Source: an uncultured bacterium (lineage in GTDB: Bacteria; Zixibacteria; MSB-5A5; UBA10806). From it: a DNA stretch of 64,000 nucleotides. Location: contig CBEUCH010000012.1 of NCBI GenBank assembly GCA_965541585.1, positions 1-64,000 on the forward strand. Direction: 5' to 3'. Numbering within the stretch: the first letter of the stretch is position 1; the number at the start of each line of letters is the position of its first letter. Under the pieces are notes generated by a model, which was given only the letters and a program-made list of their open reading frames with translations, was not told the origin of the DNA and searched no databases. Positions 552-49,184 of this stretch are shown here, piece after piece. The position numbers and the translations under genes are program-made.

Positions 552-689
552 TGTTTGTCAATATCTTTAGTGCAGTCAGGCTACTGCATTTTCAATAATC
601 CAGTTTCGAAACTCGTCTCGCAGCTCCCGGGATTCAGTAAGCATTCACAAGGGTTCTAAAGTTGTCCCAGATTCCCCGCTGTAATTCTT

Positions 690-820
690 CCGTTGTTTTC
701 GATCTATGCCCCGGATCATCTGGCTGATGCGGTGGAAAGCCCGAGTCTGATCAACTAAACCATCCTCTACGTTGAGAATTAATCCTATCTTGTGTTTTGA
801 CCTAATCTGTTAGAAAATTG
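690..820 (+). repeat. Truncated copy A of the ~315-bp dispersed element
   Basis: Aligns by eye with ~20737-20868 and with the reverse complement of ~48899-49029 (TGTTTTCGATCTATGCCCCGGATCATCTGGCTGATGCGGTGG...TATCTTGTGTTTTG). Confidence 0.9.
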
Positions 821-3036: not shown

Positions 3037-3083
3037 TCTATCTCCTCGTATCTAGTGATCTGCCTTGCTCATTATACCACATC

Positions 3084-3131
3084 TTAAGTTAGTCCAGCCA
3101 AAGAGAAAGTCAAGTTTGTTTGTGGGTGGAT
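3084..3131 (+). repeat. 48-bp direct repeat, copy 2
   Basis: TTAAGTTAGTCCAGCCAAAGAGAAAGTCAAGTTTGTTTGTGGGTGGAT matches 2156-2203. Confidence 0.8.
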
Positions 3132-3164: not shown

Positions 3165-3195
3165 CATTTCCGCTAATAGGGGACTAGTGGAAATG
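3165..3195. repeat. 31-bp palindrome family, copy 1
   Basis: CATTTCCGCTAA-TAGGGGA-CTAGTGGAAATG; related to 35323-35353 and 39624-39654. Confidence 0.75.
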
Positions 3196-10036: not shown

Positions 10037-11497
10037 TTGAGACCGAAGATTAGATTTCTGGATGACGACCTGATCGAGAAGATAGTTTCCGAGGCTGTCG
10101 ACTTGATCTGCAATCTCGGCGTTGAAATAAATAACGATAAAGTCCTTTCCATACTGGGTGATCACGGAGCCAGGATCGACGGGGAGAAAAAGCGCGCCTA
10201 TTACAAGCAAGAGATGATTGATCAGAGCTTAAAAGCAGCACCAAAGTCGTTTAAGCTATATGATTCTCTCGGCAAAGAGGCAGTCAATCTATCGGGTTAT
10301 AATGTCAATTTTACACCGGGGTCGGCCGCAATCAATATTCTTGATGGGAAATCCGGCGAAATCAGGAGGCCGGTGACATCGGACTATCTTGCATACTCGA
10401 AACTTGTCAGCAGAATGAACAATCTTGCATCCCAGTCCACCGCCATGATCCCGTCGGACGTGCACGAGCTGATATCCGATAGTTACAGGCTGTATCTGAG
10501 TTTTATATTCTGTGAAAAGCCCGTTGTTACAGGCACCTTTACGATCGAAGCGTTTGAGATAATGAAGGATCTTCAGCTGGCAATTCGCGGTTCAAAGGAT
10601 AAACTGGCGGAAAAACCGTTAACCGTTTTCTCATGTTGCCCGACCGCTCCTATCAAGTGGAGCGATGTGACATCCCAGAATCTGCTGGATTGCGCAGAAT
10701 ATTCGATACCGGTCGAATACATCTCGATGCCTCTTTCCGGTTTTATGTCTCCCGTAACGCTCGTCGGGACTCTGGTACAACATACGGCGGAGACTTTGAG
10801 TGGCCTGGTCATAAGCCAGCTTGCCAATCCGGGAACACCGGTTTTATACGGGGGTTCGCCTGCTGTATTCGATATCAGGTATGAGACGACGCCTATGGGA
10901 GCGATAGGCACAATGATGATCGATTGCGCTGCCAACGAGATCGGAAAATACCTCGGCCTGCCGACTCAGGCTTACATAGGATTAAGCGACTCCAAGATGC
11001 TGGATGCCCAGGCCGGTCTGGAATCGTCCATGGGAGCAACTCTGGCGGCCCTCGCGGGCATAAATAACATTTCGGGACCCGGTATGCTTGATTTCGAAAG
11101 CTGTTTCAGCCTCGAAAAGCTGGTTGTCGATAACGAGATATGCGGTATGACGCTCCGAATGCTTAGAGGAATTGAACCGAAAGAAGATTTTCCGTCGCTG
11201 CCGATATTCAAGGAGCTGATGAAAGAACAGCACCTGCTTATCTCGGATCATACGAGACGATATCTCAAAGAGGAGATATATTTCCCCTCTCCGGTAATCG
11301 ATAGGGCAAACAGGTCCAGGTGGAAGGAGGAGGGAGGATTTACTCTGGGAGAGAGAGCGCGGAAAGAAGTGGGAAAACATATCGGGGAGTATGAACCGGT
11401 GGGGTTGAACGACGATATCATAAAAGAATTGACGAGATTGATGGGAATCGAGGCCCGCCGCGTGGGAATGGCAAAGCTGCCTGAAATATCTGGATGA
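10037..11497 (+). CDS. MttB-superfamily (non-pyrrolysine) corrinoid methyltransferase
   Basis: PVTLVGTLVQHTAETLSG...PGTPVLYGG and SDSKMLDAQAGLES motifs; no in-frame TAG; TTG start after AAGGAG. Confidence 0.9.
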   Translation: MRPKIRFLDDDLIEKIVSEAVDLICNLGVEINNDKVLSILGDHGARIDGEKKRAYYKQEMIDQSLKAAPKSFKLYDSLGKEAVNLSGYNVNFTPGSAAINILDGKSGEIRRPVTSDYLAYSKLVSRMNNLASQSTAMIPSDVHELISDSYRLYLSFIFCEKPVVTGTFTIEAFEIMKDLQLAIRGSKDKLAEKPLTVFSCCPTAPIKWSDVTSQNLLDCAEYSIPVEYISMPLSGFMSPVTLVGTLVQHTAETLSGLVISQLANPGTPVLYGGSPAVFDIRYETTPMGAIGTMMIDCAANEIGKYLGLPTQAYIGLSDSKMLDAQAGLESSMGATLAALAGINNISGPGMLDFESCFSLEKLVVDNEICGMTLRMLRGIEPKEDFPSLPIFKELMKEQHLLISDHTRRYLKEEIYFPSPVIDRANRSRWKEEGGFTLGERARKEVGKHIGEYEPVGLNDDIIKELTRLMGIEARRVGMAKLPEISG

Positions 11498-20637: not shown

Positions 20638-20725
20638 GGAGAGGTGGCCGAGTTGGCTGAAGGCAGCTGCCTGCTAAGCAGTTATGGGGGAAACTCCATC
20701 CAGGGTTCGAATCCCTGCCTCTCCG
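20638..20725 (+). tRNA. tRNA-Ser(GCT), CCA not encoded
   Basis: Acceptor stem GGAGAGG/CCTCTCC, anticodon loop CTGCTAA, long variable arm, GGTTCGAATCC T-arm, discriminator G. Confidence 0.97.
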
Positions 20726-20736
20726 TTGTGGTTTTT

Positions 20737-21052
20737 CCACTGTTTTCAATCTATATCCCGGATCATCTTGCGGATGCGGTGAAAAGCTCGAGTCTGATCA
20801 ACTAAACTATCCTCTACGTTGAGAATTCCTCCTATCTTGTGTTTTGGATAGTTCTCTTAGAAAATTGTTGGAAAGCAACTGTCTCGAATATCGATTTCAC
20901 CTATCCATCATATTGATTGGAAAGTCTAGCACGAATTTCAACAATCCCTTTTCTTAATCCAAGATTTTGTTTTCTTAATTGATTGTTGTTGACATTAACT
21001 ATTCAGTAGGCTACACTACCATGAAGAAGCATTGTATAATATTATTTTAGCC
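20737..21052 (+). mobile_element. Full copy B of the ~315-bp dispersed element (recombinase-tail remnant, promoter, attI-like junction)
   Basis: Colinear by eye with the reverse complement of 48713-49029; begins 11 nt after tRNA-Ser. Confidence 0.75.
20989..21017 (+). promoter_or_regulatory. Near-consensus sigma70 promoter within element B
   Basis: TTGACA-17 nt-TACACT, conserved in copy C. Confidence 0.8.
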
Positions 21053-21077
21053 AGATTTACGTGAATAGGGGGAAGAT

Positions 21078-21584
21078 ATGGACAATAGCCTTACACTTAG
21101 GGTCTATCGACGGATTGATAATCGATTTGAAGGCCTGAGCGACGATTCGCCGCGGGCACTGGAGCTGCATAATCGACGCAAGGACGCTCTACATGCGGTC
21201 CTCGACAGTGATCCTGTTATCAGGGTTAGCAAATGGGGAAAAACTGATGACTCTGGTCCGCACGAGTTTGTTGAAGTCGCACTGGGTGCGGCAGCGTCGG
21301 CGGTATTCAAGTACGCAATCGTACCTGGCATCAAGTGGCTGGGCAGTAAGCTTGCGGAGAAAGCAGTTGATACTGCTCTCGGCGAGTTGGCCAAGGCGAT
21401 CGTCGCAAAGCTCCGTCCCAAGCAAGAAGCGAAAGAACTGCTGGATTTCATTCTCAATCTACCGGACGGAACGCAGATCGCTGTGAATCCACCGGGCCGA
21501 TATGCCACGATTACAATCAACTTTGCGGATGGATCGGTGCAGTCACTGGAGTATTCGAAGGCCAGTGATCAGGCTGCCGGCTAA
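21078..21584 (+). CDS. Hypothetical protein, probable integron-type gene cassette
   Basis: GGGGGA SD; its stop codon lies in the R'' box of the downstream attC. Confidence 0.8.
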   Translation: MDNSLTLRVYRRIDNRFEGLSDDSPRALELHNRRKDALHAVLDSDPVIRVSKWGKTDDSGPHEFVEVALGAAASAVFKYAIVPGIKWLGSKLAEKAVDTALGELAKAIVAKLRPKQEAKELLDFILNLPDGTQIAVNPPGRYATITINFADGSVQSLEYSKASDQAAG

Positions 21585-21638
21585 CACCGGCATGCAGCGG
21601 CCGTGGCTCCCCTGCGCCGCTGAAGAGAAACGTTATGT
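21579..21638 (+). mobile_element. attC recombination site (60 bp)
   Basis: GGCTAAC-ACCGG-CATGCAGC...GCTGAAG-AGAAAC-GTTATGT; L boxes pair with one extrahelical base and one mismatch. Confidence 0.8.
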
Positions 21639-21759
21639 GTCTTTTCGAATGAAAGACGCCATGAGGAGACGTAGCGAGGACCCGATGTTATGAGTAACTA
21701 TGTTCTTGAGCTCATAGTATCAATGTAAGATATGAGCAATAGTATAGGCATCTGATTAG

Positions 21760-22554
21760 ATGGAAGAAATCATCAAAACAATGCTAGTCTACGCTGCGGC
21801 AGCGGGCGTTATCTATGCCGCATTTGACCGTTTGGAGAGCCTGGCGGGAGACCAAATCAGAGAAAGGGTCTTACTATTTCTTAAAGGGCAGTTACAAGAC
21901 CAACCAAGTCAACAGTTCTCGAGTCTCTTCGATAGACTCTTTGGGCATAGGCACTTTTCTTGGCGCTGTTTCCTCATAAGCGGTGTTGTTTCGTTAATAG
22001 CTGTCTTCGCTGCCTATATAGGTTTGAACCTTTGGGAAATTGGCGCGCGTCCCCCGGGTACTGCTTTTTATTATATATTGGTGGGCGCTCTGCTAGCTAA
22101 TCTAGTGCCCGATTATCTTTCATTGTTAGAGAGTAGAGTGATCATTCGTTGGTTACCTCGGTTCCGGGTATTAGGCAAGGGATTTTTGCTTCTGTTAGAT
22201 CTCATTATTACTTTTGTGATCTATACATCTTTCTTGCTAACATACGTTTATTTGGGCGAAGGGTATTCTGAGACTTCCTTTGGTAGTTTTCTAGACTCAC
22301 TGTTTGGCGGGAGTGAAGTTCCTAGGATTGTAGTGGCGACCTTTCTTTCAACTTTTTCGACATCGTTATGGATTTATTTCTACATGTTTGGTGTGGGGGC
22401 AACGAAAATGACTCGAAAATGGTATCTCGGAGTAAATCTACTGGAAATTCTGAAGTGGCAGATTCAGCCTGTGCGAGCGGTCGGGTCAATCGCGGCAATT
22501 TATCTATTTGGGCTGCTGTGTGTTATCCGTACGGCTTTTTGGCTGTTCAACTAG
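21760..22554 (+). CDS. Hypothetical integral membrane protein
   Basis: About 6-7 hydrophobic segments; AT-rich. Confidence 0.75.
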   Translation: MEEIIKTMLVYAAAAGVIYAAFDRLESLAGDQIRERVLLFLKGQLQDQPSQQFSSLFDRLFGHRHFSWRCFLISGVVSLIAVFAAYIGLNLWEIGARPPGTAFYYILVGALLANLVPDYLSLLESRVIIRWLPRFRVLGKGFLLLLDLIITFVIYTSFLLTYVYLGEGYSETSFGSFLDSLFGGSEVPRIVVATFLSTFSTSLWIYFYMFGVGATKMTRKWYLGVNLLEILKWQIQPVRAVGSIAAIYLFGLLCVIRTAFWLFN

Positions 22555-22861
22555 TTCATTTACAAAGGCTTTTGGCAGCCGCCAGTCATGATTATTGGGC
22601 CATTATCAAAGATAGCTCTTCGGATATCTGTGCGGATGGTATCGCCCTGGCTAAGGAACAGGATTGCGTGATGAAAGAAGACTGGACAGGGGATTTCATA
22701 TCCTGGGTCTTTCGCCTTGAATAAAGGAACAAGGGGAAAATCTCAAGGGTTGGTGAAGCCTGACCGGGAAGCCGCGGACGACACACGAGATCCGCCGGGA
22801 TGATCTTGCCGATTGGAGATCTGCGCCGCCCGCCCACCCTTGAAAAAAGGAGGCAATTCCG

Positions 22862-35322: not shown

Positions 35323-35353
35323 TATTTCCGCTGATCCCCCGTTAGTGGAAACG
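35323..35353. repeat. 31-bp palindrome family, copy 2
   Basis: TATTTCCGCTGA-TCCCCCG-TTAGTGGAAACG. Confidence 0.7.
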
Positions 35354-35380
35354 AAAAAGCCCCGACCGAAGCCGGGGCTT
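35354..35380 (-). terminator. Rho-independent terminator
   Basis: AAGCCCCGGC-TTCG-GTCGGGGCTTTTT on the minus strand. Confidence 0.8.
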
Positions 35381-39498: not shown

Positions 39499-39623
39499 GC
39501 CGAAATGCATATGTATCCCACCTCTTTGGGATGCGATAAGTATGCTAAGATAGATTACCAAATATCGAGTTCGTCTTTGATGCGGTGGGTTACCATTTCA
39601 TATTCAGGCAGCATCGTATGTGT

Positions 39624-39654
39624 CGTTTCCACTAATATCCGGTTAGTGGAAACG
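39624..39654. repeat. 31-bp palindrome family, copy 3 (perfect arms)
   Basis: CGTTTCCACTAA-TATCCGG-TTAGTGGAAACG. Confidence 0.8.
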
Positions 39655-46924: not shown

Positions 46925-47803
46925 TTATTTCTTCTTCAGGGTCTGATATACTTGATACGCTTCTTCAGGTGGCATGTTTTCATGAACGACTTTTCGCACC
47001 GCCTGGATCATTGCCCCGGGGGCATCGGATTGAAATATATTTCGTCCCATATCAACGCCACAAGCGCCCTGCTTGATTGCATTGTAAGCCATCTTCAGAG
47101 CATTGAGTTCCGAAACCTTCTTTCCGCCGGCGATAACTATGGGGACAGGGCAGGATGCCGTTACGGTTTCGAATCCCTCGGGGACATAATAAGTCTTGAC
47201 GTATGACGCTCCCAGTTCGGCACAGATTCTGGTTGCTAAACGCATATATTTGGCGTCCCGGGCCATCTGCTTGCCTACTGCCGTAACGCAGAGGACAGGG
47301 ATACCATACCGGTTACCCATATCCACCAGCCGTGTCATATTATGTATCGATTTGGTTTCGTATTCGCCTCCAACAAACACCTGAACTGCAAGTGCGGCAA
47401 CGTTCAAACGGATGGCATCTTCGATATCAACAGCAATCTCTTCATTCGAGAGCTCTTTGAGTATGCTTGGACCACCGCTTGCTCTGAGGACGATTCCTTT
47501 TGTAAAGGTCGGGGGGATGGTTGAGCGCAATATTCCACGCGTGCACATGAGGGTGTCGGCGTAAGGGAGCAGTGGTACGATGGTCACATCAATCCGTTCC
47601 AACCCTGCAGTCGGACCGAGAAAATACCCGTGGTCGATGGCAAGCATCACAGTACGCCCGGTCTCTGGATGAAATATATTCGATAACCGGTTTTTCATCC
47701 CCCAATCCAGTGAGTTCGAGCCTCGCAACGTGAACGGCTGGTTCTTCATGGGGACATCCGGGTGATAATTGTGCGTTTCTTGATTGCTGGCCTTATCTGC
47801 CAT
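46925..47803 (-). CDS. lsrF: LsrF-like class I aldolase/thiolase
   Basis: [30 protein letters not shown] and DMGRNIFQ motifs. Confidence 0.88.
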
Positions 47804-48065: not shown

Positions 48066-48126
48066 ACCTAACGATTTAACTCACGGGCGCGATGTTTTTC
48101 GCATCCTGTGGAGCGATTTGTCAGGC
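48066..48126 (-). mobile_element. attC recombination site (61 bp, R'' variant GAC)
   Basis: Minus strand: GCCTGAC-AAATC-GCTCCACA...CGTGAGT-TAAATC-GTTAGGT with an internal GCGA/TCGC stem. Confidence 0.75.
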
Positions 48127-48142: not shown

Positions 48143-48667
48143 TTATCTTCTTACTGTCGGTTTGGCAGGATCTGTTTCAAAAACGGTATTTTCGGTCACA
48201 GTCTGGCGTAAGCCTCCAGGTATTTCAGGCGGAAAGTGAACGGCAACAGTTAATGAGCCACCACCTAAAGCACTGGCCCCCAAAGTATACCCCGCTTTCC
48301 CGGCCGTATCTGTTCTATAGTCTGGAGATCCCCATGAAAAAACATCTCCGCTATGATTCCAAGTTACTGGAAGTCCATCCCAGGGATATAACTGAGTTCC
48401 ATTCGTAGTTCCGAGAGCGTAAACTTTGGTACCTGCTGGAACATATCGAACTTGATAGAAAAATCGACCGTTAGGGGTACCCAGGAGTGAATAGTCTGTT
48501 GTCCACCAACCATACACATCTACTCGCGTTGCGCCTCTGCGAACATCTGTCTTAAGTGGTGATTTGACAATTTTGGGGGGACCGAAAATCCAACTACAGC
48601 CGGTATTTATACTTGCAATTGACGTTAAGAATAGTATCATTACTAATGTTTTACTTAAATGTTTCAT
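48143..48667 (-). CDS. Hypothetical lipoprotein-like protein, probable gene cassette
   Basis: MKHLSK-hydrophobic-NTGC signal; lies between element C and attC. Confidence 0.75.
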   Translation of the reverse strand: MKHLSKTLVMILFLTSIASINTGCSWIFGPPKIVKSPLKTDVRRGATRVDVYGWWTTDYSLLGTPNGRFFYQVRYVPAGTKVYALGTTNGTQLYPWDGLPVTWNHSGDVFSWGSPDYRTDTAGKAGYTLGASALGGGSLTVAVHFPPEIPGGLRQTVTENTVFETDPAKPTVRR

Positions 48668-48712: not shown

Positions 48713-49029
48713 GCCCAAAATAACATTAAACAACACTTATTCATAGTAGTGTAACCTACTGAATAATTAATGTCAACAAGAATCAATTAAGAAAACAAGA
48801 TCTTGGATTAAGAAAGAGGATTGGTAAGATTCGTGTTAGATCTTCCAATCAATATAATGGAAAGGTGAAATCTATATTCGAGACAGTTGCTTTCCAACAA
48901 TTTTATAGGGAACTCTCCAAAACACAAGATAAGAAGAATTCTCAGCTTAAGAGGATCGTATGAACAGTCTAATTCCAGTTTCTCCACCGCATCAGCCAGA
49001 TGATCCGGAGCATAGATCGAAAACAGCGG
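48713..49029 (-). mobile_element. Full copy C of the ~315-bp dispersed element
   Basis: Reverse complement is colinear with 20737-21052; its 5' part translates as IYAPDHLADAVEKL. Confidence 0.75.
48748..48776 (-). promoter_or_regulatory. Near-consensus sigma70 promoter within element C
   Basis: TTGACA-17 nt-TACACT on the minus strand. Confidence 0.8.
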
Positions 49030-49184
49030 CAAACCTGGTTTGCGTTGAGCTTTCTTGTCAAGCTGGTTTAGTTTGGCAATCAGCTTGCGCTTTTCGCTGG
49101 TCCGGGCATTCTCAGGTCATTGTAGGTTCTGGGTATATTACCCGAAATTATCGGTTGGGTTTTGAGCAGGATACATTATATTTA

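Follow-up and report, generated by a model that had tools for sequence, protein, structure and literature searches.

CALINs and SALINs are more common than complete integrons, and both their origin and their expression are an open question. The attI sequences of most integrons are, to our knowledge, not known, so standard tools miss them. In the available parts of the literature, CALIN and SALIN loci carry one or a few cassettes with attC sites and no integrase nearby, are defined by attC only, and are explained by intI loss, rearrangement or insertion at attG sites (PMC4889954; bioRxiv 10.1101/2022.09.11.507474); mobilisation of CALIN cassettes in trans is accepted (PMC4889954; bioRxiv 10.1101/2025.06.18.660453, available portions). 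One attI is given per integron in the accessible text of PMC3607928. Since IntegronFinder matches attI and Pc for classes 1-3 only (PMC4889954, in part), a conserved promoter-attI head would go unseen.

The window analysed here, a stretch of 64,000 nt from an uncultured bacterium of the Zixibacteria, contains two long copies (A and B) and one shorter copy (C) of a repeat. Copies A (20733-21048, plus strand) and B (48717-49033, minus strand) are 83% identical over 322 nt (E 1e-89), which bears out the multicopy non-coding repeat claimed in the original prediction; copy C (665-820) matches only the distal part of the long copies (83% over 156 nt). The similarity of A and B stops at the TT (21047-21048 and 48718-48717), 31 nt past the -10. 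The features of the window are the following:

665-820, plus strand: copy C, a tRNA-end-like remnant with integrase relic and arm-type repeat, carrying no promoter and no attI
20638-20725, plus strand: tRNA-Ser(GCT), an island hot spot directly upstream of copy A (ARAGORN and Rfam)
20749-20806, plus strand: integrase relic common to copies A, B and C, namely the final ~20 codons of a phage-type tyrosine integrase of tRNA-Ser (not IntI)
20855-20874, plus strand: imperfect direct repeat of the arm-site type, as at island ends (from recurrence of the motif)
20986-21017, plus strand: putative promoter of module A, -35 TTGACA (20989-20994), 17 nt, -10 TACACT (21012-21017) (from conservation across copies)
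21034-21052, plus strand: attI-type simple site of module A, L box GTATAAT (21034-21040), 5-nt spacer, R box T|TTAGCC, crossover before 21047
21078-21584, plus strand: cassette gene A, 168 aa, function unassigned, GC 54% against 29-37% in the element
21579-21638, plus strand: attC A, R'' GGCTAAC, L'' 21591-21598, L' 21619-21625, R' GTTATGT (from attC models)
21633-22614, plus strand: probable second cassette beginning at R' of attC A, with a 264-aa ORF (21760-22554) and no scorable attC
48066-48126, minus strand: attC B, decayed, R'' GCCTGAC, R' GTTAGGT (from attC models)
48143-48667, minus strand: cassette gene B, 174 aa, lipoprotein-type N-terminus, near-orphan (one homologue at 57%)
48717-48779, minus strand: module B, -35 48776-48771, -10 48753-48748, L box 48731-48725, R box T|TTGGGC (from sequence)
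48780-49033, minus strand: leader of copy B, which duplicates 20733-20985 and includes both integrase relic and arm-type repeat (from sequence match)

Copy A starts 8 nt 3' of the tRNA-Ser(GCT), and after the orthologous tRNA-Ser two genomes of the same genus (G001 and G002) hold different DNA. The integrase relic is 82-88% identical to the 3' end of a 381-aa integrase on another contig of the source genome (G000:C18:37316-38461) and to its homologues in G003 and G010. The full C18 copy adjoins a tRNA-Ser fragment, and in G003 the homologue comes after tRNA-Ser. The C18 locus (L017, G000:C18:37316-38560) looks intact and lies behind a 3' fragment of tRNA-Ser, distant from the tRNA itself. The repeat at 20855-20874, which we infer to be an arm-type site, recurs upstream of modules in G011, G018, G023 and G028, and stands in reversed orientation before the integrase gene at the tRNA-Ser island of G011. 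Two further arm-type repeats, 1.2 kb apart at G000:C2:276066 and 277228, are possibly the ends of another island relic. Judged by its letters, the leader of A and B is tRNA-Ser island debris duplicated inside the contig, and the wider unit is the last ~63 bp only, because the distal ~250 bp are integrase and arm debris shared only by the window copies. Thus, what had been proposed as an element of ~315 bp, for which Rfam gave no family, stands as a repeat and not as a functional unit. The truncated copy reported at 690-820 exists as a match and has neither promoter nor junction, copy C having no match to the module model R1 (built from 13 copies by sequence only, and ending at TT) and terminating right after the arm-type repeat.

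The module is composed of a putative sigma-70 promoter, 29 nt and an attI-type simple site ending in G|TTRRRY, ~63 bp in total. The predicted TTGACA-17-TACACT is present in both long copies (20989-21017; 48776-48748). A lone match to it is at the level of chance (2 found against 2.1 expected), so the promoter call rests on conservation across copies: among the first 47, TTGA is invariant, 40 have the 17-nt spacer and with it, by sequence, a Pc-type -35/-10 pair directed towards the cassettes, and the T, A and T of the -10 are kept at 96-98% around a variable middle. Such conservation would be expected of a working sigma-70 promoter.

The consensus of the family, GTATAAT-ATTAT-G|TT, stands 16 bases past the -10, has L and R boxes that are inverted relative to each other and 5 bp apart, and shows the 7+5+7 layout of attI1, the latter read from class 1 loci. 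Conservation of the 16 nt ahead of the crossover is about equal to that of the promoter hexamers. The 34 copies that were not used for training have an information content of 1.2-1.7 bits at the TT and immediately ahead of it, but of only about 0.1-0.3 bits from +6 onwards, and the common junction that had been predicted across genome-wide and related copies was found as this fixed boundary at G|TT. Bases not seen by the model follow the consensus of the attC R' box, with a purine at +2 in 36/44 (p 0.008) and a pyrimidine at +5 in 32/44 (p 8e-7); the purine bias at +3 and +4 was not significant (p 0.23 and 0.08). The region from -12 to -63 is conserved but overlaps the promoter, and no clear DR1/DR2-like repeats could be assigned in it.

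The core of the junction reads GTT in 47, TTT in 4 and ATT in 4 of the 67 copies, the share of GTT being partly inherent in the search patterns and models; the junction of one locus (L121) was moved by one base manually. The R box, GTTRRRY with a sequence change right of G|TT, was thus found in the family, and the window copies carry TTT. The junction letters of A and B are as originally read, and the caveat raised about the T before TT is resolved for the family and still bears on both window copies, where a T at 21046 and 48719 replaces the bottom-strand AAC that most other copies have at the crossover. In attI1 a change from AAC to AAA abolishes bottom-strand recombination (PMC4792948, available part), and since the T of A and B equals this change, these two copies may be locked or inactive. 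Both share the T yet carry different cassettes, which requires that the mutation occurred twice or that recombination took place at an unfavourable site.

As predicted, each long copy is followed by an unrelated orphan ORF and an attC-like site of ~60 bp. Neither ORF (21078-21584, 48143-48667) had a Pfam or NCBIfam match. For gene A there are 206 homologues, with 60-94% identity among the 120 matches listed, some of them from Bacteroidota, Pseudomonas and Acidobacteria; the gene is present in 1/285 genomes of the host phylum, no homologue being found in viral contigs, in plasmids or in the other 284 genomes. Homologues across phyla together with such rarity in the host phylum fit the habit of cassette genes. 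Gene B gave a weak Ig-like lead only.

The attC sites were scored with an Infernal model and a two-arm weight matrix, both trained on 24 attC sites of unrelated integrons and distinct from the model of IntegronFinder. The original prediction had staked itself on such a model scoring the two sites, and with Infernal attC A obtained 30 bits (E 4e-5) and attC B 19 bits (E 0.02), the top two of 10 matches in the window. Genome-wide, three matches were found at E 10, all below modules, with scores computed for 150 of 442 candidates. When 19 loci were searched directly, further sites appeared below modules at C7:36386 and in G051, G016, G063, G190 and L047, and one, C24:20895, below an intI relic and without module; the attC of C2 was left unscored there. 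By the weight matrix the window sites are second and third in the genome (40.1 and 33.7), against a maximum of 27.6 in six shuffled genomes, and each of the four best distinct sites (40.7, 40.1, 33.7 and 27.5) has a module on the same strand 530-850 nt above it. The first three are beyond chance and the C2 site (27.5), which was equalled by 2 of the 6 shuffles, is borderline. Pure pairing heuristics were discarded as non-discriminating, both window sites scoring 11, below about 75 genome sites at 12 or more. The sites show the order R''-L''...L'-R', bottom-strand pairing and one extrahelical L base; attC B is decayed (AAC to GAC, fold z -0.03 against -2.8 for attC A, genome-wide E 1.2). Two matches to the left arm of attC at 47090 and 46907 (minus strand; 20.2 and 13.3), in and just after the aldolase gene below cassette B, are without a right arm and probably due to chance.

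Over the whole family, a full attC was found within 1.6 kb downstream of 9/61 copies and a full or left-half site below 16/61; the same counts without the source genome are 5/55 and 12/55. Controls gave 2/61 on the other strand, 4/63 upstream and 0.5-0.75% of 400 random windows of the source genome, so the downstream enrichment of attC that had been foreseen was observed. Copies with less than 600 nt downstream (6/67; 6/47 in the earlier set) were left out of the counts, as were, in some of them, matches below 24 bits. No recognisable attC lies below 45/61 copies, and most downstream attC sites are decayed. An ORF of at least 80 aa starts within 200 nt on the same strand in 55/63 copies, compared with 18/64 on the divergent side; promoterless ORFs followed by attC in one orientation, the cassette arrangement of complete integrons, were found.

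The R'' box GGCTAAC of attC A is the complement of the junction bases TTAGCC of module A, as had been noticed for the copy at 20737. This complementarity of R'' and junction exceeds permutation among 14 pairs (p 0.0065) and among the 8 non-training pairs (p 0.03), and in G016 the match is perfect including a non-consensus base; the number of perfect 4/4 complements was not significant outside the training set (p 0.21). On C24, the intI fragment is followed by half an attC and by a block whose closing attC (20895-21023) has an R'' box of perfect complementarity.

We consider it probable that the ~63-bp module is an integron platform cut down to a cassette promoter and an attI simple site, free of intI and spread to many chromosomal places. 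It is supported by sequence constraint on the promoter, by a G|TT boundary that keeps its place 29 nt past the -10, by unrelated same-strand genes beyond this boundary and by an R'' that is often complementary. The proposed multicopy Pc/attI-like landing pad gains support accordingly from the scored attC sites, the common junction and the attC enrichment. In common with the class 1 platform, as given in the available parts of PMC12901181 and PMC4792948, the module has a 7-nt L box, a 5-nt spacer and a G|TTRRRY R box, ~60 bp conserved upstream of the crossover, a promoter facing the cassettes, and a promoterless ORF with attC downstream. It differs from it in having no adjacent intI, many copies per genome, a promoter ending only 29 nt before the crossover and a patchy, horizontal spread. 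By their sequences, the modules would act like the Pc-attI half of an integron and not like a complete one. In terms of attC without nearby intI both window loci class as SALIN and C7 as CALIN, and unlike the loci by which those classes are described in the accessible text of PMC4889954 and bioRxiv 10.1101/2022.09.11.507474, they possess a promoter-attI head.

According to this model of a reduced platform, an IntI once resident (the relic on C24) or visiting on mobile DNA would have recombined attI with the attC of circular cassettes and so placed them at G|TT. Transcription of the first cassette would come from the module promoter and start about 20 nt before the crossover. The module may move between genomes as a passenger of larger pieces (module with first cassette, island ends, attI-ended cassettes), a step that is less supported. 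The window copies could have arisen by one old duplication of island debris with module, followed by the gain of different cassettes and then, probably, by the lock from G to T.

Further copies were found on C2, C4 and C7 of the source genome by a fuzzy search, and R1 gave 8 matches there, 6 at 59-68 bits and 2 weak, hence 6-8 copies. Matches to R1 occur in 26/150 genomes of the class, the source genome included, and a fixed pattern was positive in 22/285 genomes of the phylum (0 in the reversed control); four metagenome contigs also carry the module. The loci examined and the source genome gave 75 matches at E 1e-3. After 8 had been dropped as partial (C7:37106 and C7:36309 are not among the 67), 67 full-length copies remained, from 30 genomes belonging to 11 families and from the four metagenome contigs, with up to 10 copies per genome. 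The 67 copies are followed by 59 distinct downstream sequences, and the mean identity between copies is 65% in the module against 40% beyond it.

The nearest neighbour of a module lies in its own genome for only 5/47, copy A is 92% identical to a copy from another family, and a module with the same first cassette recurs across families with different upstream flanks; because of these observations, repeated horizontal arrival appears to outweigh local amplification. Exceptions, attributable to local amplification, are A and B in the window and copies in G190 with a common 170-nt leader. Upstream similarity between copies mostly stops within 0-170 nt. One arrangement recurs in four families (L015:3380 onward at G000:C4:26383, L097, L080, L101) and resembles a travelling defence-type unit: behind the module stands a shared gene for a small membrane protein, together with a long trypsin-like/NTPase gene that encodes 1029 aa in the source genome.

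Three candidate vehicles can be named. Island ends are suggested by arm-type repeats flagged within 500 nt upstream of 5/47 copies, plus copy B; composite cassettes by four copies that have an attC or half site a short distance upstream; and attI-ended cassettes by four module tandems within 5 kb. Module-ORF-module tandems were seen in G051, G234 and the metagenome locus L046, and can be compared with Delta-attI-type cassettes, in which, as described for classes 1 and 2 in the available part of PMC12901181, attI pieces after an ORF form cassette ends and attI-ORF-attI can be excised; those differ in having a truncated attI without promoter inside mobile arrays beside intI. REP-type hairpins as carriers found no support (11/66 upstream windows, 52/509 controls). 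Three pattern scans of viral contigs and a search of plasmids gave no module, two short phage matches being taken as chance, and a pattern match at L043 was discarded as chance AT-rich sequence.

The site after the NSS transporter is plastic, since at this orthologous position G002 holds a module with one cassette, and the source genome a truncated leader, a second attI type and another cassette. Between the NSS transporter and ACR3 the source genome has a decayed cassette array with three module copies (L013, G000:C7:33300-45700). This array additionally contains, at about C7:43860 and 37960, orphan copies of another promoter-attI type, which belongs to the attI family of the same-orientation integrons of the phylum. 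In metagenomes, a contig of run X1 with ~92% similarity carries leader, module and gene A, after which it joins 21598 to 22615 through 54 other letters; contigs of three runs carry the module alone, the match ending at 21045-21050; and in a contig of run X4 gene A continues into another attC-like sequence. These contigs are evidence that variants are present, not of activity.

The original prediction had noted that the window is without integrase and that intI should be sought elsewhere. The source genome (98% complete) encodes XerC, XerD, island integrases and a single 99-aa C-terminal relic of IntI on C24, with no TIGR02249 match over the cut-off and no intact intI. No intact IntI was found within about 4-5 kb of any copy examined; G013 has a relic of 34 aa downstream, and the other candidates were phage-type or Xer-like genes, so that the intact intI beside attI of a complete integron was found at no module. 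Ten module-rich genomes, one of them a single contig, gave no IntI at E 1e-24, and five IntI genomes contained no credible module (one partial match of 17 bits). A full IntI is present in 7/285 genomes of the phylum, none pattern-positive; since only about 0.5 overlap is expected by chance, this is absence of association, and exclusion cannot be inferred. The readable IntI genes of the phylum point to an attI of a different sequence family, in complete integrons with the same-orientation, Treponema-type layout (PMC3607928, available part), and the module model had no match in 30 IntI loci.

These data bear on the strongest alternative, in which every copy is what remains of an ordinary integron platform whose intI was lost in place, leaving a CALIN or SALIN, with no dispersed unit and none active. 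It is favoured by the C-terminal intI relic on C24, which recurs with the same upstream DNA ~1 kb below a module in G013; by the decay of most downstream attC sites; and by the arrays of G000:C7 and G013 ending at the same ACR3 gene. The two relics (L016:4450-5200, that is G000:C24:24450-25200, and L092:2850-3150 in G013) are the same truncated 3' fragment of intI with the same upstream DNA in two genera. Nevertheless, neither intI nor a relic of it lies upstream of any copy examined, and in-place loss does not agree with up to ten copies in a genome, with upstream similarity that breaks off so early, with the different attI family linked to the IntI of the phylum, or with a module and first cassette shared by families whose upstream flanks differ. 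We regard this alternative as unlikely.

Insertion at secondary sites offers another explanation, in which the module is a small mobile promoter ending in an attG-type IntI target, where cassettes land by chance and are kept if expressed. According to the available part of bioRxiv 10.1101/2022.09.11.507474, IntI inserts at GWT sites genome-wide, away from the integron, and up to 10% of the insertions are expressed near resident promoters. For the attG site described there, the core consensus is 3 nt long and about 18 nt are required, whereas the module is a homologous 63-bp unit with its own promoter across 11 families. Additionally, promoter-level conservation of the 16 nt before the crossover, arranged as L box, 5 nt and R box, argues against it, and random secondary insertion would not strike one position in dozens of copies; this makes the attG explanation distinctly improbable.

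A site served by the host XerC/D, or by the tRNA-island integrase whose relic is upstream in the window copies, has very little probability. The junction resembles the XerD arm of dif, and arm-type repeats occur upstream of A and B, together with the integrase relic, and of four other copies. On the other hand, the bases right of the TT vary as RRRY, after the attC R' pattern instead of a fixed arm, no XerC-like second arm exists at 6-bp spacing, the C18 integrase reaches 86 bits for the IntI family, where the cut-off is 265, and the arm motif was flagged near so few copies; no dif site was found with a simple pattern. Hardly any weight can be given to a promoter and repressor operator of a regulon with an incidental GTT: the 10-bp palindrome ATAATATTAT just past the start site lies where repressors often bind, but the genes downstream are not related to one another, the module is patchily distributed, homology includes the -35/-10 spacer, and the attC enrichment and R'' complementarity are left unexplained.

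Returning to the reduced promoter-attI platform, a wider proposal can be put forward tentatively, at somewhat less than an even chance: the module would be a portable, selected promoter-attI unit spreading horizontally in the phylum and never with an integrase, a distributed integron with many landing pads per cell, where IntI appears only transiently and G-to-T changes or attC decay fix useful cassettes. A literature search, with subscription journals largely outside its coverage, found no published description of such orphan promoter-attI modules. It should be emphasized that Pc-attI function and the SALIN and CALIN classes are known; what differs is a conserved, multi-copy, horizontally spread promoter-attI head without integrase. 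Such a head would constitute a third route to integrase-less cassettes, besides integrase loss and attG insertion, and would account for the expression of isolated cassettes. Furthermore, dozens of natural variants of one attI become available for direct assay, together with a compact 63-bp expression-and-landing site.

Some minor features of the window were also recorded. A 52-nt direct repeat (83%; 2152-2203 and 3080-3131) surrounds a minus-strand HEAT-repeat gene and could be an insertion mark. A short intergenic palindromic repeat, unrelated to the module, is present in three copies (3167-3195, 35325-35354 and 39623-39654), and Rfam reported a PYLIS_3 match at 10984-11081 (40.4, gathering score 38) within a 486-aa ORF.
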